Shown: positions 2,546-25,378 of the stretch, piece after piece
How positions within the stretch are numbered: position 1 is the stretch's first letter
How the letters are laid out: each line of letters starts with the position of its first letter
Source: a virus
Lineage: Duplodnaviria > Caudoviricetes
Strand: one strand, 5' to 3'
DNA: 64,000 nucleotides
IMG/VR virus record: IMGVR_UViG_3300014204_000165
Coordinates: 12,606-76,605 of that record
The notes under the pieces: generated by a model
Database searches by the model: none
The model's input: only the letters and a program-made list of their open reading frames with translations
Told to the model about the DNA's origin: nothing
Position numbers and translations under genes: made by a program

Positions 2546-2788
2546 ATGAATAATGGCCCATTGAAAAGTTATAGTTTTCCATATAATAATTTAAAGAACC
2601 AGCCAAATTTCGTTTGGCCAGAAGGTCTTGAACTAACAGTAGATTGTAGAAATTGTAATGGTGAATGGAAAATAAAATTTTATACCCACAATAACGACCC
2701 TTGTATTACAATTGAACCAGTGCAACACGTTGAGGATATGAAAGTGGACTTAGAATGTGGAGTTATAAGTGAAAGTGCGACGGTATAA
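2546..2788 (+). CDS. Hypothetical protein
   Basis: 80 aa, SD AGGAGG, CxxC. Confidence 0.55.
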   Translation: MNNGPLKSYSFPYNNLKNQPNFVWPEGLELTVDCRNCNGEWKIKFYTHNNDPCITIEPVQHVEDMKVDLECGVISESATV

Positions 2789-2789
2789 T

Positions 2790-2966
2790 ATGAGTCACAA
2801 TTATACACTTGTATATGGCCATTATGTTAAGGATCACAAACCTGTTGTGGATGATGAGATTATTGTATTAAGAGATGCTTTACCAGAAGGATATTGGACA
2901 ATACTTGATTTTCTACACCTAGGAGGTCTCCTAAGAATATGGAACTTATGGAGTCATGATGAATGA
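2790..2966 (+). CDS. Hypothetical protein
   Basis: ATG 2790 directly after previous stop; ATGA overlap with next gene. Confidence 0.45.
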   Translation: MSHNYTLVYGHYVKDHKPVVDDEIIVLRDALPEGYWTILDFLHLGGLLRIWNLWSHDE

Positions 2967-3328
2967 AGATGCTCTCTGTTCACCTAATTGAACTTGCTCA
3001 CAAACTGTCACTACGCAGCGACATGCGGCACAAGATCGGGGCAGTTATCTTCAATAATAAGGGACATACCATCTCGGTCGGTTACAATAAGTGGCTGGCA
3101 ATTGGTCAACCTCACATAAATGGTAGTCATAACAAATTTTCAATACACGCCGAAGTAGATGCCTTAACAGGATGCTCCCGAAAGGAACTCTGGGGTGCCT
3201 CACTCCTGGTTATTCGAAGTACCTGGGGTCTTGCTAAACCATGTTCGGCTTGTCAGGCCATAATCTTGAATAGTGGGATAAAGAATGTGTACTTTTCTAA
3301 TGGAAAGAATAAAATAGAAAAATTATAA
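2963..3328 (+). CDS. Zinc-dependent cytidine/dCMP deaminase family protein
   Basis: HKIGAVI, GYN, HAE and PCxxC (KPCSAC) motifs. Confidence 0.9.
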   Translation: MKMLSVHLIELAHKLSLRSDMRHKIGAVIFNNKGHTISVGYNKWLAIGQPHINGSHNKFSIHAEVDALTGCSRKELWGASLLVIRSTWGLAKPCSACQAIILNSGIKNVYFSNGKNKIEKL

Positions 3329-3333
3329 AAATT

Positions 3334-3360
3334 TCCTTTCTATAAACTTTTCAGAAAGGA
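3334..3360. terminator. Possible bidirectional terminator hairpin
   Basis: TCCTTTCT/AGAAAGGA 8-bp stem between convergent genes. Confidence 0.4.
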
Positions 3361-3377
3361 CATTCTGATATAAATTA

Positions 3378-3698
3378 TCACCTACAAGTATCAACTTTCC
3401 AATATCTATACAATTCCCAGAATATTCCGGATTCCTGACAGCCGCCTTTTTTGGATCTTTCCGTTAGACAATCAAGAAATTCCCCTGTTTCTGTGTAAGT
3501 TGTTCCTACTACCAGATTTGTTGTTGATACTGTTTTCCTGAGTCTAGTACATAAGTGGTGTGTTTTATTACTATCACTATACGCCTGAAAATGCGATGGT
3601 GTAACATGAAGGTAATAATCGCAGTCTTTACATAACCGTGATTGTTCTTTTTTTTTCTGTAGTGAATCTATTTCTAGTGTCTTTTTAAATGGCCACAT
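3378..3698 (-). CDS. Cys-rich hypothetical protein
   Basis: CxxC, H.CTR, C..ER...GxC. Confidence 0.6.
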   Translation of the reverse strand: MWPFKKTLEIDSLQKKKEQSRLCKDCDYYLHVTPSHFQAYSDSNKTHHLCTRLRKTVSTTNLVVGTTYTETGEFLDCLTERSKKGGCQESGIFWELYRYWKVDTCR

Positions 3699-4835: not shown

Positions 4836-5136
4836 GCATGCTCCTACAAGCGACTTCTACAATCGAAACTAAATCATATGATTCAGTGGTTGGTATCGTG
4901 AAAACAAGGCCATTCCGTGGTGCAAATCCGTCAACAGTACAATTATAATACATTGTATCTCGGTGATTATTATCAAGCCTGAATCTTAGTGAATATGGAA
5001 ACGGACATCGACTTATTATGTCATGGCATAAATCATAATTTTCCTTATCCAAGATTACTTGACCTTGGCTATAGGAATATCGTGCAAAGTTAGTGCAAGC
5101 AATCTCATGGATGTCGTGATCAAAGAGGATGTACAT
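4813..5136 (-). CDS. Paralog family A member 2
   Basis: MYILFDHDIHEIACTN. Confidence 0.7.
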   Translation of the reverse strand: MYILFDHDIHEIACTNFARYSYSQGQVILDKENYDLCHDIISRCPFPYSLRFRLDNNHRDTMYYNCTVDGFAPRNGLVFTIPTTESYDLVSIVEVACRSMHENSIRT

Positions 5137-5481
5137 TTAATCAGTCCTGTATACATTTATTCTTGTCGTGCCCCACTCAGTATAACTTCTTGGTTCATTA
5201 TTGCTACGAACACCAATAACTGGAGATACTTCAAAATAAACATTCCTCAGGAATCTATCTATTCTTGTTACCACACAGTACTTTATCTCTTTATTATCAT
5301 CAACCAACATGAATTTATTTGGTTCTTGTTCGTTACGCACAAATTTTCTAAAGTTTATTCTAGTGAAGTTTAGTATTCCACCAGGTGGTCTTGGATCAAA
5401 ACTATGATGATAACATCCATCTAATAGTTCGATAAGATTACAAGGAATTTCTTGGATATTATGCTCAAAGATAAGTTTCAT
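5137..5481 (-). CDS. Paralog family A member 1 (start reassigned to ATG 5481)
   Basis: MKLIFEHNIQEIPCNL; ATGA overlap with upstream gene. Confidence 0.7.
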   Translation of the reverse strand: MKLIFEHNIQEIPCNLIELLDGCYHHSFDPRPPGGILNFTRINFRKFVRNEQEPNKFMLVDDNKEIKYCVVTRIDRFLRNVYFEVSPVIGVRSNNEPRSYTEWGTTRINVYRTD

Positions 5482-5813
5482 ATAGCACCTACTGCGTGGC
5501 ATGCCTGGAATTCCTCAATTGAGCCAAATTGATATAACTCGTCTCTATATTCATCTGGTGATATGGGGCCAGTTAGTAATTTATCCAAGAGATACTGTAA
5601 ATATGGATATGCACCAGATACTATCAAATAAGTCTCTCCCAAAGCAAATGGTAGTATCTTTTCTATTTTTAAGAATGTCCAACCAAGTGCATGCGGGCTA
5701 GGGGTCGAATATGTTATTAGGCCGTCACGAATGTTAACAGACTTCGCGATGTATGTTTTTCTTGGGTCCTGAATATCTAGGATGCCTTGGGAATTTAATG
5801 TAATTCTTTTCAT
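5478..5813 (-). CDS. Paralog family B member
   Basis: MKRITLNSQGILDIQDPRKTY...YLQY...F.S.EEF. Confidence 0.75.
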   Translation of the reverse strand: MKRITLNSQGILDIQDPRKTYIAKSVNIRDGLITYSTPSPHALGWTFLKIEKILPFALGETYLIVSGAYPYLQYLLDKLLTGPISPDEYRDELYQFGSIEEFQACHAVGAI

Positions 5814-6136
5814 TAAATTTCACCTCGCGCATGACAATGGGCAAATTCGTCCTTGGACTCGAATTGATAAAGGTGTCCGATATAACTATCTTGATTACGT
5901 TGGCAAAATTTTAGACCAGCTTCGCATGAATATTGTAAGTATGGTTCATCAAATAGTAACCAAGATGTTTGTCCAAGTATTTCAAGTATTTTAAATCCGT
6001 GAATATTTGGTCCATTGTTCATATTAATCCAATAATTTGTACTATTACTATGGATTATATATATTTTAAATATAAAGCATTTTGTTGGATTAATTATATT
6101 AAAGGTACCATCTGGGTTCAAGGTTAGTTCTTTCAT
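5813..6136 (-). CDS. Paralog family B member
   Basis: MKELTLNPDGTFNIINPTK...YLQY...FES.DEF. Confidence 0.75.
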   Translation of the reverse strand: MKELTLNPDGTFNIINPTKCFIFKIYIIHSNSTNYWINMNNGPNIHGFKILEILGQTSWLLFDEPYLQYSCEAGLKFCQRNQDSYIGHLYQFESKDEFAHCHARGEI

Positions 6137-6501
6137 AACTGATGCTTCCTAACGGTATGCTTACACCGTTTATTTCTTATAACTTGGTGAGACTTTACTT
6201 GTTCGGTGCCGTCTGGCAAGATCTCGACTTTCTCCTTGGTAATCTTTCTATTGGATAGTTCTATCTGCTTGTTATGGGCAATGCCATCTACTGGGATAAG
6301 TTCGGTTTCAAAACGACCCCTATTCGTGACGGACTGCGTAGTTACAAGATTAGTTTCCTGAAGTTCTTTAAGGGCATTTATTGTCTGGGTACTCTCGGTA
6401 TAAGTCAGTGCTTCTATTAGATTGTCCACAGTTACGATCCTGTTTTTATTCCTGCGCTGGATCTTGGCCAGTAGTTGTTGGGCGTTTTCGGATAATGTCA
6501 T
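6133..6501 (-). CDS. Putative winged-helix DNA-binding protein
   Basis: HTH-like TVDNLIEAL...TINALKELQETNLV followed by beta-wing; basic. Confidence 0.55.
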   Translation of the reverse strand: MTLSENAQQLLAKIQRRNKNRIVTVDNLIEALTYTESTQTINALKELQETNLVTTQSVTNRGRFETELIPVDGIAHNKQIELSNRKITKEKVEILPDGTEQVKSHQVIRNKRCKHTVRKHQL

Positions 6502-6660
6502 TTAATTCAATCCCGTCCACATACCTATCAATACTGCTACGATCCCTGTTAGTATGAACCACTTAGAATCTGGATCATTTTGAGTATATTTATTTATTCC
6601 AATACATAAAACTAGACATCCTAATAATACAAATGCTATAACGTCAGGATAAAAAGTCAT
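6502..6660 (-). CDS. Small two-TM membrane protein (not in ORF track)
   Basis: 52 aa MTFYPDVIAFVLLGCLVLCIG..., fills the gap between genes with ATGA overlap. Confidence 0.5.
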   Translation of the reverse strand: MTFYPDVIAFVLLGCLVLCIGINKYTQNDPDSKWFILTGIVAVLIGMWTGLN

Positions 6661-14444: not shown

Positions 14445-14762
14445 CTAAACCATCACCCTGAGATCTATCAAAAATGCTAAACCTGTCAAGAAAAGGATAT
14501 TCATAAAACCACTTTCCCAAAAATTTCCATTAGGTTTGTAGTTTCTTAGTCCGACTAATATACCTATCATACATAATATATTTAATATATAATATATACA
14601 CCATTCCATTTAAATCGTCTCCCAAAGATTATCGTTGAGTGAATGCACAATACCTATCAATTCTTGCGCAGAATATTTATCAATAATTGCTTTGATTACG
14701 ATACCGTCTCTTATTACAGGATGCCTTATTTCTATTTCGTATATATTTTGTTCAGTATTCAT

Positions 14763-15179
14763 TTAAATCATCAACTTGTGTATTTTATCATGTAGTTTCT
14801 TTGCTTTGTCATTCACCGCATCTATTAGGCTGATTGGTAGTGCACCAAATATTTTATCAAGGACGTCATCACGCTGACCTTGCCAATCTTTTGGATCTGT
14901 AAGGGACGGCCAGCCAAAGACAGACCATGTTGCTCGATATTCAACCTTTCTGAAGCCGTGTTCCGAGAGGAGTTTTTCAATAACTTGATCATGAATGTGT
15001 TGATAAGACGGACCACTTTCTACAAAATATTCATCTGTTTGGATTACGTCGGCCAGAACTGCTTTAATTGCCTGCACCACGATTTCATGGAGTTGATCGT
15101 TGCTGTATTCATTTTCGTGCTGGAGTTCTACGAATTCGCTTTCCTCATAGGACCCATAACCAATTTTGTAAGTAAACAT
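14763..15179 (-). CDS. Hypothetical protein
   Basis: 138 aa, packed in operon. Confidence 0.65.
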   Translation of the reverse strand: MFTYKIGYGSYEESEFVELQHENEYSNDQLHEIVVQAIKAVLADVIQTDEYFVESGPSYQHIHDQVIEKLLSEHGFRKVEYRATWSVFGWPSLTDPKDWQGQRDDVLDKIFGALPISLIDAVNDKAKKLHDKIHKLMI

Positions 15180-15365
15180 TTAATAAGCCTCGCCGTGTAG
15201 TATAACGGTTCTGATAATTACATCTAATAATGCTCCTATAAGTGTTACTCCGCCTGCCAATGCTAACAATGCAAATGGCGGATATATCCCGGAATTATGT
15301 ATACTAGGAACTAAATAAAATCCAGCAATAAAAAGAATACCATAACATAATAATCGTATAATCAT
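15180..15365 (-). CDS. Small two-TM membrane protein
   Basis: Hydrophobic 61 aa. Confidence 0.55.
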   Translation of the reverse strand: MIIRLLCYGILFIAGFYLVPSIHNSGIYPPFALLALAGGVTLIGALLDVIIRTVILHGEAY

Positions 15366-15366
15366 T

Positions 15367-15981
15367 TTACCACTTCTCCAAGATTTGTTTTGCTTTTTTT
15401 GGTAAATTTATAATGGCTTCCAATGGCGAAGCATATTGTTCTTGTAACTTTTTGACACCACTTGCACCTAAATAGGGTAGTTCTACAAGCCATTCTGCTG
15501 GTGAGCCTGCCTTGATGCTGGGTGTAGGTTCATCCAGCCTTGGTAAATAATTGTGAATGTGTACCAATCGCCAAATTGTCTCTTCTAAACACATGGTAAA
15601 GTAAAATTTTGTACCTAATTCTTGCTGATGGGTGAGAAAATTTGACATTGTCTTATAGTTCATGCGAGGTGTTAGTTTATCGCCAGAGTAAATCCAAACA
15701 GAACCTTGACTCACTTGATAAGGACCTTCTATAAGGAGGGCTGTCTTTTCACAAACCTTGCGCATTTTTGCTAAACGTGGCTTAAGTTCACGATAGGATC
15801 CACAAAAATCTCCTATGGCCTTGCGCTCTATTAAAATATTATTAATATTATTTAATTTATAATCTCCCAACGGGAGACAACGGAACTCCCACTGGGGAAT
15901 ATCTGGGCCGACTATAGATGTTGCCAGAAGATCCTTAATGGCATCAATATGTTTTTCTCTGCTATCACAAATAATAGACAA
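15367..15981 (-). CDS. ERCC4 (XPF/Mus81-like) structure-specific nuclease
   Basis: DSRE, LPLGDY, IERKAIGDF (ERKxxxD), C-terminal HhH LPYLG. Confidence 0.9.
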   Translation of the reverse strand: MSIICDSREKHIDAIKDLLATSIVGPDIPQWEFRCLPLGDYKLNNINNILIERKAIGDFCGSYRELKPRLAKMRKVCEKTALLIEGPYQVSQGSVWIYSGDKLTPRMNYKTMSNFLTHQQELGTKFYFTMCLEETIWRLVHIHNYLPRLDEPTPSIKAGSPAEWLVELPYLGASGVKKLQEQYASPLEAIINLPKKAKQILEKW

Positions 15982-16006
15982 ATTTTCCTCACCTCAAAAA
16001 AGTTAG

Positions 16007-16813
16007 TTACCAAAGTGGTCTTGGTACCTTAGCAGCAGCCAACACACTAATCGGATCAGGATCCACGACCTCGGTTTGATAATCAGGATTCATTGGAGCA
16101 AAGTCATGGCCGGTTGAGTGTATCCTGGCAACCTGGTGTAGTTTACCGTCGCGAACTTCATGAATGAGTTCTACCGAAATGTCGCTATTGAAATCAGCCG
16201 AGGTTGGGTAAACTAAAGGAACTTTCAAATTAGTATCAAAATCTTTGGCAGTCCTATGAATCAAGAGGACGTTAGCAAAGTTTTGAATAGCAGTAATCTG
16301 GCTAGACATTGCTTGTGTTATGAGTCCGAATTCTTGTTGAGATGGCCACTTCCTTTTATTTTTTGTAATGTAATTCAGGATTTCCATGGCGCGCCATCTA
16401 TAGGTATCGTCCAAGACGACCCAAACTTTACCAGCATTTGGAATAAGGGCAACATCCTCGGCGTAGTACTTAGCCTTTTCTAGAGCAACCTGAAACTCTT
16501 CCCAAGATTTTGGGAAATGATATTGGTTCTTATAATCAAAGTTGTCTATTTTTGGCTTCCAGGCAAGAACACCGTCTGGTTTTTTGAAGGGTGCAAATAT
16601 ACTTCGGAAACCTTCTCCCACTGTTCTTTTTAAAGCCAACTGATCAATCTCAACTTTACCAAAGGATAGTTTAGCAGGTGGGAAGTCAATAATGACGGCG
16701 TTTGGCATGTTTGCCCCGAACCAAGTTTTACCAATCTTAGTGTCAGCATAAAGACTAACCAAAAGAGGATAAATGACCTCCCCTTCTGGTATTTCGACTA
16801 GTTCACTGGTCAT
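16007..16813 (-). CDS. P-loop ATPase, AAA_24/Sak4-like annealase candidate
   Basis: Walker A variant ADTKIGKT, Walker B WVVLDD; next to nuclease and SSB-like gene. Confidence 0.65.
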   Translation of the reverse strand: MTSELVEIPEGEVIYPLLVSLYADTKIGKTWFGANMPNAVIIDFPPAKLSFGKVEIDQLALKRTVGEGFRSIFAPFKKPDGVLAWKPKIDNFDYKNQYHFPKSWEEFQVALEKAKYYAEDVALIPNAGKVWVVLDDTYRWRAMEILNYITKNKRKWPSQQEFGLITQAMSSQITAIQNFANVLLIHRTAKDFDTNLKVPLVYPTSADFNSDISVELIHEVRDGKLHQVARIHSTGHDFAPMNPDYQTEVVDPDPISVLAAAKVPRPLW

Positions 16814-16993
16814 GCTTTACCCTCAGGTCATTGTCAAGTTTCTTTGCTTTAACTTCACACTGGATTACTCTATTTATTGCATCGTGTATTGATTCTCCCT
16901 CTCTACAAATAAATGTCCGGATATCACTATCTTGCGCTTCATTGAACTCTAGAACAACTCTGGACAGAAGTAACCCTCCTAAAAGTGAAGCTG
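16803..16993 (-). CDS. Hypothetical protein (probable GTG start near 16993)
   Basis: Fills the gap between neighbouring genes. Confidence 0.4.
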
Positions 16994-16995
16994 TT

Positions 16996-17733
16996 CTAAG
17001 CCTCACTAAAGTCGAGTGTCTTTCCATCTGAGGTATACTTGACATTCCTCATGATTTCTTGCCACGCGCTAGTGGTCTCTTGGTACGACCCGAACTGACC
17101 AGTACCATACAGATCCACGATGTCACGCTTGGGCTTACCCTGATAATTTGCCTTGAGGTAGTCTAGCAAAGCAATGGCCTTTTCGCTTAGGGCAGCCGTT
17201 CCCTTCACTGTTGGTGTTGCAAGTTCCTTTTTCATGACAGATGCTACGTCAAGGTCCATGTAACCAGTTTTCTCGTTCCTCCTGACGTAGCCCACGAACT
17301 TGTCAGCTGGCTTGAACAATTTGTTGAATTTGATGTCCTCGCCGGGCGTGATCGTGGCTGCTGTTGCCCGTGTGATAAATTCAGACAGGTTCTTGCTGGG
17401 CATATCAAACTGGGCGGCGTACTTAAACTCATACCCAGTATTGGGCTCCTTGAAAACGAACCTAATCCTGTCCACAAACGCTTTCTTTTCCTGAGGCGGT
17501 TTGCCATCGCGAGCCGGCCAAAATTCCACTGGAGTTGAGTCAACCAAGGCCTTTTGTTCGGCTGTCAGACTGTCATATTCCTTGCCCGTGATACCCTTGA
17601 CTCCTCTGAATGCCTCTCGGAATGTTACGACTTTATTTTCCTTTACAATATCGGTTAGTTCCAATTCGTACTGACCCTCTGCTAGTCCAGCACCCTGGAC
17701 TACAATGGGCTCATCCCATGCGCTATTGCTCAT
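16996..17733 (-). CDS. Putative single-stranded DNA-binding protein
   Basis: G.Y.+.+..+ OB-like start; three tandem promoters upstream; position in recombination module. Confidence 0.55.
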   Translation of the reverse strand: MSNSAWDEPIVVQGAGLAEGQYELELTDIVKENKVVTFREAFRGVKGITGKEYDSLTAEQKALVDSTPVEFWPARDGKPPQEKKAFVDRIRFVFKEPNTGYEFKYAAQFDMPSKNLSEFITRATAATITPGEDIKFNKLFKPADKFVGYVRRNEKTGYMDLDVASVMKKELATPTVKGTAALSEKAIALLDYLKANYQGKPKRDIVDLYGTGQFGSYQETTSAWQEIMRNVKYTSDGKTLDFSEA

Positions 17734-17871
17734 ATTATTTCCTTCTCCAAATTTTTCTTTTCGGTATAATGAACGGCTCTACTTTTAGGGAATTACACCC
17801 AAGGATCGCCGACAAATCCAGTTAATGCGGTTGATTTTAGTACACGCACATTACTAACAGTTAATTTTCTA

Positions 17872-18011
17872 GTATTTAAGTGTTTTGGTTTGCTCTATTT
17901 TAAACTTTTTGGTGATAGGATCCGTGAATGTTCTGGAAACCAGTTACAGTTAATTGGTTTTCGTAACAAACACAAAATAAACTAAGTTTTAGTTATATAT
18001 AAAGGTTTTGG
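17872..18011 (-). promoter_or_regulatory. Three tandem BRE-TATA promoters
   Basis: Matches at 17872-17888, 17896-17912 and 17994-18011. Confidence 0.6.
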
Positions 18012-18034
18012 TATAGGTTATTTTATTGCTTTCA

Positions 18035-18358
18035 TTATTCTTCGATATCTTCTAGTCCAGAACAATTTGGTAATCCTTTCTCGTATGTTATTTTAATCAA
18101 CCTATATCCTTGTTCTTTTAGAAGTTTATATAAAGACCACTTACTTTCATAACTAATGCTAAATATATATTGATCATTATTAAATTCTTTTATAATCACG
18201 CCTAAATCCAGGTTCTTATTCAGACCATCTCGAATTTCCTTATGACTATAATCGGGAAGTGCTTCTTGGATCTCTTTTAGTGTCGGTTTATGACCAATAA
18301 CTTCCTCAAATTTAAAGACACATAGGGCAACATCAAGTAAAATGTATATGGTTATCAC
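18035..18358 (-). CDS. Putative winged-helix transcription regulator
   Basis: PTLKEI...YSHKEIRDGL...LGVI wHTH pattern. Confidence 0.55.
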   Translation of the reverse strand: MITIYILLDVALCVFKFEEVIGHKPTLKEIQEALPDYSHKEIRDGLNKNLDLGVIIKEFNNDQYIFSISYESKWSLYKLLKEQGYRLIKITYEKGLPNCSGLEDIEE

Positions 18359-18425
18359 TCCTCTTGGGTATCAAGTGGTTCATATAATCAGCCTCTATCT
18401 ACTCCATTCTTGTTCTACCAACCAA

Positions 18426-18695
18426 TCATGAATTATTTCGAATATGCGGATTGAAGCATATCCTGCCAGCATGAATCCTAATGCGATTCCTATAATAATC
18501 AGGATAACTGAGATCATTCTTTACCTTTTTTATTAAGTATTCTGTTCTCTGTCTATTCACAAAATCAACTGTGAAATTTCCACTGACTGAGTTATGACAA
18601 TTTGGACAACCTTCCTTGAAGGCGATCCTTGCTTCAGAATATGTCCAAAGTTTTCGATTGCAATGTGGACAAATAGCGTAATGAATGTCGGTCAT
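18426..18695 (-). CDS. Zinc-ribbon protein
   Basis: CPHC...CPNC; promoter at 18717-18733. Confidence 0.6.
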   Translation of the reverse strand: MTDIHYAICPHCNRKLWTYSEARIAFKEGCPNCHNSVSGNFTVDFVNRQRTEYLIKKVKNDLSYPDYYRNRIRIHAGRICFNPHIRNNS

Positions 18696-18747
18696 GTTAA
18701 TAAAAGAGAGTTTGAAGTATATAAAGGTTTTGGTATAAAATAGATCT

Positions 18748-18804
18748 GGCTAGAGTCTGTCCTACGTCTCCTAAATGGATCGGGCCGTCCTCTTGACTCT
18801 AGCC
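18748..18804. other. GC-rich stem-loop just 3' of aRF1
   Basis: GGCTAGAGTC (18748-57) and GACTCTAGCC (18795-804) form a perfect 10-bp inverted repeat. Confidence 0.6.
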
Positions 18805-18831
18805 GACTGGTTGATAAAGCTATACAAAATC

Positions 18832-19858
18832 TTAATATCGAAGAATAGCAGCTATACCACCAAACACCTTACGAAGTTGTTCGCCTTCTTCGAATTCTGT
18901 TGATATTATGTTAACTTTGGTACTAAATTTAGATGTCAATTCTTCTAGTGCTTTTTCATGGGATGAAAGTAACAACGTTTTAACTCTTCCGGTTAGAAGG
19001 GCATCTTCCACGGATTTTCTTCCATATAATATTGCACCGTCTTTGCTAAGCAGTGTAAAGAAACTTCTCATTATGTTACGTTGCTTCACTAGTTCGGTTT
19101 CTTTTAAGAGTTCCTCGGCATTTTGTATTGTTTCCTTTATACCTTGGAATCCAGTATAACCAACATCCACAACACCGGTAATCTTTTTTCGAAGTTCGTG
19201 ATGCAAATATTCACTATCATTGAAATCATTTTTCGTGAGTCCTGGGCCACTTATTATAATTCCGGAAAGGTCTTTTAAATCAAGTAATTCTTTTGAGATA
19301 TTATCCGCACTTGATTTAAACCAATCAATGATTGCAAGTTGTCGGTTTTTCTCAAATCGCTTCGCAGACTGTCCGCCTCTACTCATTTTCTGAGGAACAT
19401 TACTTTCGTCTTCAAAAAGGACATTAATAGAAGTTCCTTGTAAGGTAACTAAGGTAACTTCATGCAGGTCCAGGCAAATAATCGCATGTTTTGGACCTTT
19501 ATCTTGCATGCTTTCAAGAGGGTCCAAAAAGAATTCTGATCCACATCGATAGATAATACCTTTAAGTGGCTTAGGAACTGCTATAGCCTCACTTATCCAA
19601 CCAGTTGATGTTTCACCGACAAAGATAGCATAATGCCCATCAGATAAGGTTTTTAACTTTTCCAGACAACTCTTGATTGCAGATATAACTGCTTGTCGAG
19701 TCACACGAGATTTGATATTCTCAGCTTTTCCTGCTTCGTCGCGCAAAAGACCGGCAGCATCTGGTACTTTTCCTTCAGGAACATATAACGTGATTAGTTC
19801 TGTTCCTTTGCCTCTTAGTTCACACAGTGTGCTAAAGACAGTAGTTGTTAATGGTCAT
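18832..19858 (-). CDS. prf1: Archaeal peptide chain release factor aRF1, 341 aa, needing a +1 frameshift at CTT-TAG (19837-19832)
   Basis: GTELITLYVP, NIKS, YxCxxxF (YRCGSEF), GGQ and C-terminal FGGIAAILRY motifs; SD AGGTGA plus ATG 19858 lies in a different frame from the body. Confidence 0.9.
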
Positions 19859-19877
19859 TTAATTCACCTATTTTATA

Positions 19878-19933
19878 TGGAGCATAGTGGAATCGAACCA
19901 CCCCGAATAACCTTTCGTAAGCCATTTTGCTCC
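19878..19933 (-). ncRNA. D-armless tRNA-like element (55 nt plus discriminator A)
   Basis: GGAGCA/TGCTCC-A acceptor stem, T-arm GGTGG-TTCGATT-CCACT, one central arm that pairs only on the minus strand (G-U pairs). Confidence 0.6.
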
Positions 19934-19935
19934 TA

Positions 19936-19969
19936 ATCAAGAAAAGAAAGGTGTTGATTTGCACCTCTC
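19936..19969 (-). terminator. Hairpin plus U-tract (terminator or attenuator-like)
   Basis: GAGAGGTG-CAAATCAA-CACCTTTC followed by TTTTCTT. Confidence 0.4.
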
Positions 19970-20010
19970 CTTCCCTGAGTTGTGTGGGCACCTACTACAA
20001 AGACGGACTA

Positions 20011-20027
20011 GTATAAATACCTTTTGG
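20011..20027 (-). promoter_or_regulatory. BRE-TATA promoter for the tRNA-like/aRF1 transcript
   Basis: Identical to the 701-717 promoter. Confidence 0.75.
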
Positions 20028-20029
20028 TC

Positions 20030-21460
20030 CTAAACAACACTAACAGTGACCGTACCTGCTCGTATCCTTTCATCCTCATCGATATTGATAAGACCTCCGG
20101 TTGTTGAAATACTTGTACCATCTCCGGTGATTATGCAAGACTCCACCGTGTCAATGCCTTCAAACATTCTGGAGGTTGCATAATCCATGTAAATGTATAG
20201 AAAGAGATCTGACCATTCTAAGTCTTTACCAATTGTATAAGCATTTAGGAAGGCTTCAACACTCGCCTGAATACTATCTGCTAAGTCCGTTTCTGGTGTT
20301 GTTGTTTGACTAATCGAGATAGTAACATCCACAGAAACTGTCCTGGGCAACACATACAAATATGGATAGGTTCCCATGCCGATAAGAATATCATAGGAGC
20401 CAATACCAGCATAACTAATGTCATCTATGGAAACTGCGCGGTCCGTGGTTGCTTCCAAAACAGTCTCAATGGTATCTCCTCGGACTGTATTAATAGGAAT
20501 CGTTGCGATTGCTGTTCTAGTCCTTCCCAAAATATCAGTATAAGTTAGTGTAAGGCTGTCGCCTGCTAATGCATGGTTTGTAGCCCTAACCCAGATTCGA
20601 CCACCCGAAGATTCTGCTAGGTTGGTAGTAATTACGCCACTCACTACGGTAGATCCTAAAATACCTCGGCATATAACACCTGCAGCAACATCTGCTACAA
20701 GAACATCATAAATGTCTGTGGAGTCTGCACCAGTTCCACTATCGTAGTCAGCTATAACTTCAATATCTCCGTAGCTGCGAGGATAGACATGAGCTTCGCT
20801 TACGTCTTCTAAATCTGTAAGATGCTCTTCAATGATTTCAGTGGTTGCCTTGCCTGGGACTAGGACAGCATAATAATAGCGATTTCTTAATTCATCATCG
20901 GTTTCTTCATCGGTGCCATCAGCAAAGGCGGAAGCATTTTCAACTCGATCCACGCCTTCAATAGCATATGGTAACTGAGTTATGGAATATGCTGCTACGT
21001 TACCATTGGTTCCGGGTTCCACGGCTTGGGCTTCAATTATGATAGAGTAAGATCCAATTTCGATTTGGCCATAGGAAGTTGTCTGGAAATATTGTTTGGA
21101 GCCATCTGAACCGAGAGCGAGTGCCTTGGAACCAAGAGGAATCGGGATAACTTCAGTTGCCGCATAAGTACACTTGAAGGTTAGATTGCCGGTGGCTTGG
21201 GTGCCTGCTTGACGACCATTGGGTAATCGATCGACAACGAGAGCATCCAAATCACTCCCAGTAGCCGTTAGGATCGAGACACTCTCAGTGGATTCTGACG
21301 TTCTTAAATACTGTAAGTAAATTTGAGTAGCAAAAACTTCGCCAATTATATCAAGCATGCTGCCGGCTGCGAAATTTCGGATCAAAGGGTGCCGAGATAT
21401 TATACCATTTTTAATCTGTAATTTAATGGTTTCAATTGTAGGAATGTCCAAATTAATCAC
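20030..21460 (-). CDS. Baseplate J-like wedge protein
   Basis: ATGSDLD, R..G..ATG.+.F, A...G..GNV, G.DEETDDELR.R. Confidence 0.93.
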   Translation of the reverse strand: MINLDIPTIETIKLQIKNGIISRHPLIRNFAAGSMLDIIGEVFATQIYLQYLRTSESTESVSILTATGSDLDALVVDRLPNGRQAGTQATGNLTFKCTYAATEVIPIPLGSKALALGSDGSKQYFQTTSYGQIEIGSYSIIIEAQAVEPGTNGNVAAYSITQLPYAIEGVDRVENASAFADGTDEETDDELRNRYYYAVLVPGKATTEIIEEHLTDLEDVSEAHVYPRSYGDIEVIADYDSGTGADSTDIYDVLVADVAAGVICRGILGSTVVSGVITTNLAESSGGRIWVRATNHALAGDSLTLTYTDILGRTRTAIATIPINTVRGDTIETVLEATTDRAVSIDDISYAGIGSYDILIGMGTYPYLYVLPRTVSVDVTISISQTTTPETDLADSIQASVEAFLNAYTIGKDLEWSDLFLYIYMDYATSRMFEGIDTVESCIITGDGTSISTTGGLINIDEDERIRAGTVTVSVV

Positions 21461-21462
21461 CG

Positions 21463-21900
21463 TTATTGTCCTATACTTGCTATATCACTTGTAAGCCTGA
21501 GCAACTCCTCAGGGGTGTAGAGAAAATTCATGTCGCCATCAGAAAGCCTCACACTAAGGTTGAATTGAAATGGATCTGTTAGGCCTTGGGTACATGCAAC
21601 TGATTGCACCGGGAGGTCACTAAATTGATATTTCATGTCGCCCAGGATGTCCTGTTCTAATCTGCGCATATTATTGTTGGTATTTTTTTCATGAAGATAA
21701 TTTAGGGCAGAACTTCCGATGTGTGTATCTTGACGTTCTCCGCGCGGGATTCCTAGGTAAAGTAAAAGTCTTTGCTTGATTTCATCGGTCCCTGAGATAA
21801 TCGCGAGATCTCCTTGTGCGGTGAGTCTGAGATCAAGGGATGTATGGCAATGGCTATAGCCCGGTCCGATGTCCATATTGGTCGCGAGGTCGTAGTACAT
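21463..21900 (-). CDS. Baseplate gp25/W-like protein (start ATG 21900)
   Basis: GDLAIISGTDEIKQRL...GE....GS pattern. Confidence 0.8.
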   Translation of the reverse strand: MYYDLATNMDIGPGYSHCHTSLDLRLTAQGDLAIISGTDEIKQRLLLYLGIPRGERQDTHIGSSALNYLHEKNTNNNMRRLEQDILGDMKYQFSDLPVQSVACTQGLTDPFQFNLSVRLSDGDMNFLYTPEELLRLTSDIASIGQ

Positions 21901-21995
21901 TTTATAAAACCTATTATTAAAATCTATATCAAGAGTTCTTAAATGCTGTCGGAGTAGAGCTTGGCGGTGCCTATCTGGATCAGGGTGTATGGCAT

Positions 21996-24077
21996 CTACA
22001 GCTCCGCAATCGCAACCCAATGCATGAATATGAAATGTCCAGCTGCGGAATTTCCGCCAGCACTCCACGTAAATCCAGTTTGCCCAGGAACAGTATAGCC
22101 CACCGTTGTCGATGGTGTTATATCGCCAGTTGTTGTATCCGCGACTTTATCCGCCGCACCAGTCGTCGGGGAGTATAGATGGACAACTGGATTTGAACGC
22201 ATTTGTATCCCAAATGTAACATGATTGGTATAAACGTCATATGTATTGTATGCTTGCGTGTACATAGCCCCGTGATAATCACTTGTTGTGGGTGTAATAT
22301 TATAATTATGACTTTTTTGGTAGTATTCACAACATCGTAATAATTCTTCGTTGAATTTCATCGGCATGAATGGTAGGCAGACTGGGCCTTCGTTGAGTTG
22401 TACATCTCCTAGATAGAGAAGGTCATCAACTGCCGCATCTGCATCATCACACCAGATGAAGACGGCCAAATTGGCCATGCTCGCGGTGTCGATGGCTATA
22501 TTCTCTATTTTGTATGTAGTCCAAGTGTCGGCAATCAGAGCGAGATTAGCTGCCACGTTCTCGGCGGTCCAATTGGCGACAAGCGTTGGATTGTTGCCTT
22601 CCGCCCCCCAAGCATCCACGACATCGCTTGTTAGCGTATCGGCGGTAGAGGACCAGGAGAGAACTGCTGCCCGGATATTCCGGATAGCCTTTCCGGTCGT
22701 GGTCCGAGCTTTGAACTGGAGAGAGACGGCCTTCCCCGCAAATTTCAATGCATCCTTGTTTTCGAGGAAAAATATCTTTCCGAACTTCTTGTTAGCGGTT
22801 TCGACCTCTAATTTCAGCGCAGTGGCCGCGCCTGATGGCACAATGGCAGTCTCTTGGCTGACATCCACAATATCATTGCCATCCGAGAGCAAGACCCATT
22901 GATCCAGCAGATAGGTGTCGTCAGAATTAGCCGGATCGGTGGCTGAAGTATAGACCGCTAACGCTCGCTGATTGACTTGGAATTGCGGATTGATTATTGC
23001 ATTATAGTACAACCCCGGCGTCTTGTCCAGCCAAACTGGATTCGCTGAAGCACCTTGGGTAGCAAGAACTTGTCCTTTTGTGCCCACTGCTAAATATGTC
23101 GGATCATCTGCACCAGCATATAGAATAGTACCTTGATCGCCTTTTGGAAATTGTTCCCAGGTGGACGCTCCTCTTCGAATTAATTCACCACGTGCCGGTG
23201 AACCCACAAAATCTAGAACTTCGGACAGAGTGCACTCTTCTCCCGCACCGCCACTTGTTGTTTTCCTACCAAGAATTCGCGAAGTTGCAGAAAATGTAGT
23301 AGAAGTAGTCGGAATAGATGCACCATCGCCGCCAGAATGGTCATGACTGTCGCCATTAGTGACACCGTTAGCAGTAGGGGCATAAGTTCCTGATAAATCG
23401 GGTATCCAGCCAGTTGCCAATGTTCCGCTTACACCATTTGCAATAGGAATTTTATTTTGTGTTGGAGTAGACGTTGCATTCGCAGGGTCCTGAACAACCT
23501 TGGAACTTGAATTAAGGGATGCTAATCCATTTACTTGTGCTTTGGATGCAATAAACGAATCTATAACGGTATGCAAATTAGTACCAATATCACTTAGGTT
23601 AGTATGGCTCAGGGTGGCACCGTCTCCTCCTACGTGGTTGTGAGAATCCCCATTTGTAACACCTTCACTGACAGGGGCAAAATCTGAAATATCATAACCA
23701 CTATCTTCTAATGCATTTCCAGTTATACTAGAGAAAATAGGAATGTTTCCAATAACAGAAGTTTCCGGACCAATAACAATGGAACCGAGTGCTTCGCTTG
23801 TGGCTGATATTGTAATGTTATTTAAAGCAATTTTTGAAGATCCAGTTCTATTTACAATAGCATATACGGTTCCTGTTATTTGAATGGCTTCTGTACTGGT
23901 TGACACCGTGAATATTATATCTTCGCCAATAATTGCATCTGATATTATAGCCTCAGCAAAAATTCCAGATATTAACATTTCGGCTGTCGAATTCGTTAAA
24001 TTTTCCCATTGAACATTTACCACTGGATTAACAGTCGGAGATATTAAAATATCATTAATGTAATATGATGTAGACAT
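21996..24077 (-). CDS. Tail fibre protein
   Basis: Two HxH-containing repeats; NAIINPQFQVNQR...YLLDQW receptor-type domain; YYQKS...QMRSNP tip. Confidence 0.85.
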   Translation of the reverse strand: MSTSYYINDILISPTVNPVVNVQWENLTNSTAEMLISGIFAEAIISDAIIGEDIIFTVSTSTEAIQITGTVYAIVNRTGSSKIALNNITISATSEALGSIVIGPETSVIGNIPIFSSITGNALEDSGYDISDFAPVSEGVTNGDSHNHVGGDGATLSHTNLSDIGTNLHTVIDSFIASKAQVNGLASLNSSSKVVQDPANATSTPTQNKIPIANGVSGTLATGWIPDLSGTYAPTANGVTNGDSHDHSGGDGASIPTTSTTFSATSRILGRKTTSGGAGEECTLSEVLDFVGSPARGELIRRGASTWEQFPKGDQGTILYAGADDPTYLAVGTKGQVLATQGASANPVWLDKTPGLYYNAIINPQFQVNQRALAVYTSATDPANSDDTYLLDQWVLLSDGNDIVDVSQETAIVPSGAATALKLEVETANKKFGKIFFLENKDALKFAGKAVSLQFKARTTTGKAIRNIRAAVLSWSSTADTLTSDVVDAWGAEGNNPTLVANWTAENVAANLALIADTWTTYKIENIAIDTASMANLAVFIWCDDADAAVDDLLYLGDVQLNEGPVCLPFMPMKFNEELLRCCEYYQKSHNYNITPTTSDYHGAMYTQAYNTYDVYTNHVTFGIQMRSNPVVHLYSPTTGAADKVADTTTGDITPSTTVGYTVPGQTGFTWSAGGNSAAGHFIFMHWVAIAEL

Positions 24078-24079
24078 TT

Positions 24080-25378
24080 TTAGGTTTCCTCGCCATGAAT
24101 TAAAGATGTGCCCATATAAATTTTTGGTGTATTAAATTGGACTTTATCAGAGCATGTTGCTTCTAGAATAGGTGCTGTTACCTCAACTTTAACGGATGAT
24201 ACTAACTTAACATTACCCTGGGCTGCATTTACTTTTATGTCACCGTTTGTAAGTGTTTCTATGTAAGAATCGTGGATTTTGTCCCATAAGTGACAGGTGC
24301 CATCTACATCGAGAAGAACTTCAGAAGAACCATATTCTGTGTTGTTATTTGCCGTTAATCTTATCGATCCATCTCTATATATTCTAATAATAGCATTTAA
24401 TGGTAGATAAGCAGATTCATATGCAATTATCCCGTAGGAGTCAGACCATTCCATAAGGGAGCCGGTAACTAATGTTCTGGCACCTAAAACTTCATGATCA
24501 ATTGATGTTTCTTCATGTTCGGAATGTACATCTATTGTACCAGTTGGGTGATAATTTATATGACCACGTTTTTTTTGCTCAGAAACAGCATTGCCTAGTC
24601 GGATGTGGCCCCTACCTTCACTGTATTCATTGGAAAATCCGGTTTCACTTTCCAAGCGCAAGTATGATCCGCATTTAGTATGATGTTCCCAGCGGGATGG
24701 TGGTGCCTCAGTGCTTTCTGTCTGAGAGGAATATATCTTTTCCCATTGACCTTGTTCCCGCGGAACAGAATCAATATCCTCACAATATTTACAAGTTGGG
24801 TCACAGTCACCTAGCCAGCAGTCCCATACAGTTTGGTAATCTCTCCCAGGACCAGAAATTCCTTTTGGTGGTCCATGAAATAATTTTTTGCATATTGGCA
24901 TTTTGCCAGGTGGATGGTCATAATAGTCTTTGTTTTCGTCTTCGCTGGGTTTTAGCCACTGGCACCACTTGTCTACGAGATCATATTTTGCGTCCCACTC
25001 AGTTGGCGCGCGATATACAGGTTCTTGCTGGATAGTCGCAACTGGCCCCAAAACCAACGGCATATTATTATACATGAAGAGGACGGCTACTAAATCTCCG
25101 ACCCGAGGTGTATAAGGTTGGCCAAATAAATTTCCTGTGAAGTGTTGAAGAACAAGTGCGTTCAGGTGTTGGATAGCATTAGGATCTGTGTTGTTTGCCT
25201 TGGTACTGCGAATCTTAAGGGAAACCGTATTATAATATTCTGTATGGTCTGGTGAGTGGCACTTAACTCCAGGTGATCCCAATTTGTCAATTTCGACTAT
25301 GGTACAATAGTCTATATACATTTGGCGTGAGATAAGGCGCTCACTTGAATTGGTAAACGACTGCATGATTGAGGTCAT
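24080..25378 (-). CDS. Baseplate spike (gp5/gpV-like)
   Basis: OB-fold P.VGD.V.V.F....P.VLG and C-terminal beta-helix-like repeats. Confidence 0.7.
   Translation of the reverse strand: MTSIMQSFTNSSERLISRQMYIDYCTIVEIDKLGSPGVKCHSPDHTEYYNTVSLKIRSTKANNTDPNAIQHLNALVLQHFTGNLFGQPYTPRVGDLVAVLFMYNNMPLVLGPVATIQQEPVYRAPTEWDAKYDLVDKWCQWLKPSEDENKDYYDHPPGKMPICKKLFHGPPKGISGPGRDYQTVWDCWLGDCDPTCKYCEDIDSVPREQGQWEKIYSSQTESTEAPPSRWEHHTKCGSYLRLESETGFSNEYSEGRGHIRLGNAVSEQKKRGHINYHPTGTIDVHSEHEETSIDHEVLGARTLVTGSLMEWSDSYGIIAYESAYLPLNAIIRIYRDGSIRLTANNNTEYGSSEVLLDVDGTCHLWDKIHDSYIETLTNGDIKVNAAQGNVKLVSSVKVEVTAPILEATCSDKVQFNTPKIYMGTSLIHGEET

Follow-up and report, generated by a model that had tools for sequence, protein, structure and literature searches.

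Not every RNA that looks like a tRNA is there to decode. The closest described parallels to the structure reported here are the t-elements, which have the shape of a tRNA without its decoding capacity and lie in a longer transcript beside a functional RNA, as do their counterparts at plant mitochondrial mRNA ends. In the account given by PMC4326828, which cites Hoelzle et al. 2008 and 2012, t-elements are known from Haloferax volcanii, upstream of 5S rRNA. There they are cut by RNase P and tRNase Z, which sets the 5′ end of the 5S rRNA, and they can liberate any RNA placed between them (PMC4326828). How little of a tRNA such processing can need is apparent from methanomicrobial RNase Z enzymes that cut D-armless pre-tRNAs about as well as wild type; they need the acceptor stem and a mature 5′ end, and cut after the discriminator (PMC7479834). 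Vertebrates offer a second parallel in mascRNA and the MEN-beta RNA (of MALAT1 and NEAT1, respectively), cloverleaf-like RNAs of about 60 nt with a poor anticodon loop, which are excised from a longer transcript by RNase P and RNase Z. Metazoan mitochondria offer a third, the D-armless tRNA-Ser, which has an acceptor stem, an anticodon-type arm, a short variable region, a T-arm and a connector where the D-arm would be. In the thrU-tyrU-glyT-thrT-tufB operon of Escherichia coli, tRNA genes are co-transcribed with a translation-factor gene. The tRNA-shaped RNA lies upstream of that gene and is removed by the tRNA-processing enzymes.

The locus we describe shares something with each of these. It lies in a window of 64,000 nt, our name for the whole stretch of DNA analysed, which belongs to a 76.6-kb IMG/VR record (G000) estimated to be 54% complete. 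The virus is tailed, with a baseplate J gene at 20030-21460. In the leader of its gene for the release factor aRF1 is a D-armless, tRNA-shaped element (Table 1). Like a t-element, it has an acceptor stem (6 bp and a mismatch) set on a 5-bp T-stem, the parts that RNase P and tRNase Z read, together with a discriminator A and a non-CCA trailer, and a cut here would set the 5′ end of the RNA downstream. It differs in lying in the 5′ leader of a viral protein gene, in being a singleton whose cleavage is a prediction, and in having no D-arm but a long central arm. Excision of the kind seen with mascRNA and MEN-beta is likewise only our proposal for the present element, and there is no homology; those RNAs come from the 3′ ends of long non-coding transcripts, are conserved among vertebrates and possess a D-arm-like helix. 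As to mitochondrial tRNA-Ser, the element's loop would present CGA (Ser) if its central stem were 5 bp, but the mitochondrial tRNAs have a 7-nt anticodon loop with U33 and a degenerate T-loop, whereas ours has a canonical T-loop and a non-decoding loop, and nothing about it suggests aminoacylation. The tRNAs of the tufB operon, for their part, are canonical, functional and bacterial. Closer to home, viruses of the same group (G001 and G004) carry many tRNAs in arrays, some of them degenerate; the present element, in contrast, is isolated and lacks a whole arm.

Table 1. Features of the aRF1 leader and of related sites. Positions are those of the window unless another record is named.
Feature	Position	Strand	Basis
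D-armless tRNA-shaped element, 56 nt	19878..19933	minus	sequence, fold, descriptor
Element, acceptor 5′ strand	19928-19933	minus	
Element, central arm	19906-19926	minus	
Element, T-arm	19886-19902	minus	
Element, acceptor 3′ strand	19879-19884	minus	
Element, discriminator A	19878	minus	
Viral aRF1 gene	18832..19858	minus	translations; Pfam eRF1_2, eRF1_3
aRF1 Shine-Dalgarno AGGTGA (19863-19868) and start codon (19856-19858)	19856..19868	minus	sequence
25-codon upstream ORF (ATG 19925, TAA 19848)	19848..19925	minus	ORF list, sequence
17-bp leader hairpin, directly upstream of the element	19937..19978	minus	leader folds
Promoter and first transcribed bases (47 nt)	19983..20029	minus	inverted repeat, alignment
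BRE/TATA-type promoter CCAAAAGGTATTTATA	20012..20027	minus	copy of enriched motif
Example CCAAAANNTWTTTAWA sites	702, 4556, 7218, 10298, 18718, 20012, 53494		
tRNA array of G004	L364 (G004 14500-24500), 5124-6593		

Folded on its own with ViennaRNA, the element has a minimum-free-energy structure identical to its centroid (-18.3 kcal/mol, z -2.6). The acceptor stem consists of six Watson-Crick pairs, GGAGCA with UGCUCC (element positions 1-6 with 50-55); an A7/A49 mismatch lies at its base, and A56 is the unpaired discriminator, followed by the trailer UAUAAAA. The central arm has 8 bp (positions 8-15 with 21-28), three of them G-U, closed by the 5-nt loop ACGAA. A 3-nt connector leads to the T-arm, GGUGG-UUCGAUU-CCACU, which satisfies all the canonical rules for a tRNA T-arm, including G53-C61 and the UUCRANY loop; one pair of its stem is G-U, making four in the element. 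All 19 of the 19 pairs in the three helices are intact. Neither a D-arm nor an encoded CCA is present in the sequence or the fold. Nor is there a canonical 7-nt anticodon loop with U33: opening the closing U-A pair gives a 5-bp stem and the loop UACGAAA, with A at position 33. When the predicted leader is folded as a whole, 156 nt of the minus strand (19995..19840), the element keeps exactly the same structure, and the longer RNA is itself unusually stable (z -4.6; 0 of 200 shuffles as stable). Its reverse complement takes a different fold, in which the four G-U pairs become C/A mismatches, so the structure is specific to the transcribed strand. All this agrees, letters included, with the original prediction, which had read from the minus strand a 6-bp acceptor stem with discriminator, a T-arm, a central arm and no D-arm, had called the anticodon loop unclean, and had held that the G-U pairs work on this strand only. 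The structure, then, is confirmed; the interpretation that came with it is partly supported.

Tools built to find tRNAs do not see the element. ARAGORN reports no tRNA gene for it, an Rfam search at gathering thresholds returns no match, and the tRNA model RF00005 finds nothing at E<=10 across the whole record; the check by tRNA finders and Infernal proposed at the outset thus passes it by. There is one weak match, of the T-arm and acceptor 3′ strand to the tRNA-like domain of cyano_tmRNA (15 bits, E 0.044). We therefore asked of the DNA itself how often such a shape turns up. A loose descriptor (a canonical T-arm followed by a 7-nt strand pairing at 6 or more of 7 positions with a strand 15-70 nt upstream) is present in 21 of 300 dinucleotide shuffles of the window, and an acceptor stem with a canonical T-arm is on that showing weak evidence without something more. 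The something more is the central arm. A strict descriptor that also asks for short connectors and a central helix of 5 bp or more is matched in 1 of 2000 dinucleotide shuffles, and in the real window exactly once, by the element. Chance resemblance in AT-rich intergenic DNA draws what strength it has from the 7% of shuffled windows that contain acceptor and T-arm without the central helix, and from the very many windows examined in the survey. We regard it as very improbable nonetheless, given the fall to 1 in 2000 once the central helix is required and the fact that the element is stricter than the descriptor: its central arm has 8 bp, its T-loop is exactly UUCGAUU, and it lies between genes and on the transcribed strand. 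We take the element to be tRNA-derived or tRNA-mimicking.

The leader in which it lies is just as unusual. The promoters of this virus are of archaeal type, and the motif CCAAAANNTWTTTAWA is enriched: the window contains 21 copies where 7.8 are expected, and 0 of 100 shuffles have as many copies as the window. At other genes it lies 23-36 nt ahead of the start codon, which implies mRNAs that are leaderless or short-leadered. (Several are exactly 23-24 nt before an ATG, and others 33-36 nt before starts led by a Shine-Dalgarno sequence.) The copy upstream of the element most likely drives the aRF1 transcript. From it to the aRF1 ATG are 153 nt, which would make the aRF1 leader exceptional, about 135 nt from the predicted transcription start. 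The element begins 79 nt downstream of the motif, the aRF1 Shine-Dalgarno sequence begins 10 nt beyond the element, and the three would be expected to share a transcript; with the element's 3′ end 19 nt before the ATG and a promoter upstream, the place in the aRF1 leader originally assigned to it holds. A second candidate promoter for aRF1, the TATAAAA at 19871-19877, can be set aside: it has no CCAAAA box such as the promoters of this virus have, and transcription beginning about 24 nt further on would start beyond the aRF1 ATG. Between another copy of the motif (17996-18011, minus strand) and the promoter-like site that comes next lie about 200 nt in which no ORF is convincing (17734-18011 in all); we considered a small RNA there, but folding gave no structure signal (z 0.0).

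The promoter and the first transcribed bases are found once more in the record. The 47-nt box on the minus strand is 85% identical to 1317-1363 on the plus strand, upstream of an ORF at 1423-1884, and these are the only two copies. Extended downstream (to 1317-1420, plus, and 19935-20029, minus), both form a hairpin of 17-18 bp whose 5′ arm is rich in purines and whose 3′ arm is rich in U, the same shape in different sequence. Possibly the shared box and hairpin are a common attenuator or regulatory leader. The ORF served by the second copy encodes 153 aa and has no Pfam match. In that copy, the hairpin is followed by AUUAGGAG and then by the ATG of the ORF, with no tRNA-shaped element. In the aRF1 copy, the order is AUUAGGAG, the remainder of the element, UAUAAAAU, the aRF1 Shine-Dalgarno sequence and the ATG. 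Because the second copy runs into its ORF without it, the element looks like an add-on, a module added to a leader that exists elsewhere in the genome without one.

Viral-type aRF1 proteins at 55-85% identity to the one in the window exist, and the DNA upstream of several of their genes can be compared. Our comparison covered L078 (80% identity), L079 (76%), L004 (73%), L042 (66%), L002 with its duplicates L241 and L242 (61%), L240 (58%) and L005 (55%), and left out the nearest relatives, P0002 (85%) and P0004, encoded on contigs from JGI samples 3300069203 and 3300069939. On the contig of P0002, a gap of 412 nt (132 to 544) precedes aRF1. Upstream of aRF1 in L002, L004, L005, L042, L078, L079 and L240 the element is absent, whether one looks by eye, with a covariance model (R1) or by alignment, and there is no Rfam-detectable tRNA within 3 kb of aRF1 in those seven relatives. 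When the region ahead of aRF1 in G000 is locally aligned with its counterparts in L078 and L004, the scores do not exceed those of shuffled sequence. Run on G000, the covariance model recovers only the element; on the five related virus records G001-G005 and on 11 loci it recovers nothing. Across IMG/VR, an exact 25-mer of the element is not found; a pattern running from acceptor to T-loop hits more than 117 stretches, with matching architecture in none of the matches listed, and the shared leader box used as a probe yields four unrelated coding matches. The GenBank phage collection gives no DNA match, and its sole protein match is a weak one, to Halorubrum virus BJ1. Since these searches give no homologue, covariation, which had been named as a check, offers nothing to compare.

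The location helps to make sense of this. Two loci with the same structural module, L211 (70% baseplate J identity) and L212 (60%), carry unrelated genes after baseplate J, so the end of that gene is a module boundary; L212 has the same promoter motif there. Judged from these relatives, leader, element and aRF1 make up a cassette particular to this virus. The aRF1 gene itself begins with an ORF0 of 8 codons and a +1 shift at CTT-TAG-C (19831-19837) before the main frame, a layout also present in L002, L004, L042, L078, L079 and L240, and a GGTGAAYYRAATG block at its Shine-Dalgarno sequence and start is common to L078 and L004. The original prediction had joined frameshift and element in one compact translation-control cassette. 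That union does not survive as a conserved one: relatives have the aRF1 +1 shift without the element, and a lack of conservation had been named at the outset as part of what would refute the prediction. Among the viruses compared, the element is evidently a singleton and not a conserved partner of the frameshift, and the frameshift finding should accordingly be read on its own.

If the element was once a tRNA, the group to which this virus belongs is a good place to have acquired one. G001, the record that contains L002 (aRF1 61% identical), has at least 21 tRNA genes on one strand between 45.7 and 77.9 kb (loci L209 and L210), and G004, whose baseplate J is 38% identical, has an array of 7-8 tRNAs 3.5 kb downstream of baseplate J, at the end of the structural module. 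Because related viruses carry so many tRNAs, a viral tRNA origin is plausible. A parent is harder to find. The available half of G000 contains no canonical tRNA, and none of the relatives' tRNAs is a convincing parent, the best being the tRNA-Phe of G001, which agrees at 5 of 7 acceptor bases. The tRNAs of G001 include A34 species (tRNA-Arg ACG and tRNA-Thr AGT), which are unusual for archaea. The same record has degenerate tRNA-like sequences at 70981-71050 and 70146-70217. Near 76431-76531 it also has an element, unannotated and about 100 nt long, with acceptor and T-arm.

The explanation we rank first, tentatively and with somewhat less than even confidence, is that a tRNA-derived element acts here as a t-element-like site for RNase P and RNase Z, parting the leader hairpin from a short-leader aRF1 mRNA. 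The element would have begun as a viral tRNA gene, losing its D-arm and decoding loop and keeping the parts that end-processing enzymes read: an acceptor stem on a T-arm, a discriminator and a trailer other than CCA. The first cut, by RNase P of the host, would fall between 19934 and 19933, at the element's 5′ end; the second, by archaeal RNase Z, would follow the discriminator (after 19878). Cleavage would free a tRNA-like RNA of about 56 nt and take the leader box and its 17-bp hairpin off the aRF1 mRNA, whose remaining 19-nt leader would hold the Shine-Dalgarno sequence only. By analogy with the methanomicrobial enzymes, archaeal RNase Z could credibly act on an element that lacks the D-arm in this way. 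Processing comes first in our ranking because every one of the pairs is intact despite the lost D-arm and decoding loop, and because the module sits between a regulatory-looking leader and a ribosome-binding site. Also in its favour are a stable fold that is identical alone and in the full leader, the rarity of the shape among shuffles, G-U pairs that fix the transcribed strand, an aRF1 leader far longer than the 0-36 nt that part promoter and start at the other motif copies, and the tRNA genes of the group. Against it stand the want of conservation, of any homologue and of a recognisable parent tRNA. The acceptor 5′ strand, moreover, doubles as the Shine-Dalgarno sequence AUUAGGAG, which is also found at the end of the other leader copy, and could belong to the leader and not to a tRNA. 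Removing the triphosphate-bearing 5′ end might equally well make the mRNA less stable. Should the element be cut, it would mean that an archaeal virus uses the tRNA-trimming enzymes of its host to mature the mRNA of a translation factor, and the t-element principle, familiar from rRNA in Haloferax and from plant mitochondria, would extend to archaeal viral mRNAs.

The lack of any conservation makes it nearly as likely, if still doubtful, that the element is an inert relic, a decaying viral tRNA gene with its D-arm deleted and its anticodon loop damaged, and with no role in the aRF1 leader where it happens to lie. A singleton absent from every relative examined is what one would expect of such a relic, as are a loop unusable for decoding at either 5 nt or 7 nt with A33, the A/A mismatch at the acceptor base, the failure of RF00005 to score it and a group rich in tRNAs, some visibly degenerate. 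What a relic should not have is 19 of 19 helix pairs (four of them G-U) and a fully canonical T-loop: this is more order than expected after drift that destroyed the D-arm and the loop, and the fold is kept in its leader context too. A relic would still be a record, marking a former tRNA gene at the boundary between structural module and aRF1 cassette in this lineage. Many archaeal viruses integrate into tRNA genes, and a further candidate is an att remnant, in which integration would have left behind the 3′ portion of a host tRNA gene in duplicate; an integrase could lie in the part missing from a record that is 54% complete. The evidence makes this highly unlikely. An exact match to a host tRNA 3′ half, the alternative that had been named as refuting the prediction, did not appear: the 3′ 22 nt of the element have 0 exact matches among 185,579 species, each represented by one genome. 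A relaxed 3′-end pattern retrieves bacterial tRNA-Ala genes only. These are alike in the 3′ strand because of their G3:U70 pair, where the element has A3:U70, so its two acceptor strands are mutually adapted; and an att core, unlike the element, would not contain both of them. No tyrosine integrase (PF00589) is found in the 76.6-kb record, and the site is mid-genome, between the structural operon and aRF1.

Other readings turn on what the RNA might do. Once processed, it might work in trans as a tRNA mimic, drawing off anticodon nucleases or tRNA-binding factors of the host as a decoy, or serving as a D-armless tRNA that is aminoacylated or decodes. Acceptor/T-arm minihelices are recognised by the CCA-adding enzyme and by elongation-factor-type proteins, and that minihelix is intact here, while the loop UACGAA resembles the CUACGAA anticodon loop of the tRNA-Arg(ACG) of G001. 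We think this decidedly improbable for an RNA that has no canonical 7-nt loop with U33, has A3:U70 in place of the alanine identity pair G3:U70, and occurs as a single, unconserved copy outside any tRNA cluster. Alternatively, the region could be primarily the 25-codon upstream ORF, contained in the listed ORF 19848..19991, its translation coupled to aRF1 initiation and the tRNA shape secondary or incidental. The ORF has its own Shine-Dalgarno sequence, AGGAG, which is the acceptor 5′ strand of the element, 4 nt before the ATG; it overlaps both the element and the aRF1 start, and its stop codon comes 8 nt after the ATG of aRF1. At the end of the second leader copy, AUUAGGAG likewise runs into an ATG, which opens the 153-aa ORF there, and L004, L078 and L002 also have small ORFs at the aRF1 start. 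Against this, neither peptide nor DNA has significant similarity to the relatives' small ORFs, 25 open codons arise by chance about 30% of the time ((61/64)^25, our own estimate), the Shine-Dalgarno sequence and ATG are both base-paired in the tRNA-like fold, and a perfect T-arm and acceptor stem are left unexplained. As the main function of the region we find it improbable, although the upstream ORF and the tRNA-like RNA could coexist as alternative fates of the leader. One step further is a co-opted cassette in which the leader transcript would yield both a short-leader release-factor mRNA and a stable tRNA-like RNA, and the fold would hide the Shine-Dalgarno sequence and AUG of the upstream ORF, giving a switch between processing and upstream translation; as a model this is speculative, and we incline against it. 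Weighing processing against these, we think the element is best filed as a lineage-specific, t-element-like tRNA remnant.

Small ORFs that end at or over the aRF1 start are found in L004 (427-505), L078 (126-188) and L002 (2862-2981). Those of L004 and L078 are conserved and end 5 nt before the aRF1 ATG; their peptides share DNMS..YQ[LF]QNW, directly before the stop codon, with several synonymous differences in the DNA. That of L002 has 39 codons and overlaps the aRF1 start. These ORFs suggest that in some lineages aRF1 initiation may be coupled to an upstream ORF or leader peptide. Two apparent resemblances to the upstream ORF of G000 did not hold. A codon-level likeness to the L002 ORF (V/I-R-F/I...P-Y-K-x-G) is not significant by local alignment (37 and 115 of 2000 shuffles), and the 11-mer TCCATATAAAA alone stands out (p about 0.02-0.06). 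The start of the upstream ORF resembles the aRF1 start of L042 (AGGAGCAA..AATGGCWTAC), which we judge to be coincidental because in G000 the aRF1 start has its homologues in L078 and L004. L241 and L242 match L002 exactly over 290 bases that run up to and into the aRF1 start; in both (2643-3621), aRF1 is called as two overlapping pieces of 135 aa and 206 aa, which points to either an additional internal frame break or an assembly error.
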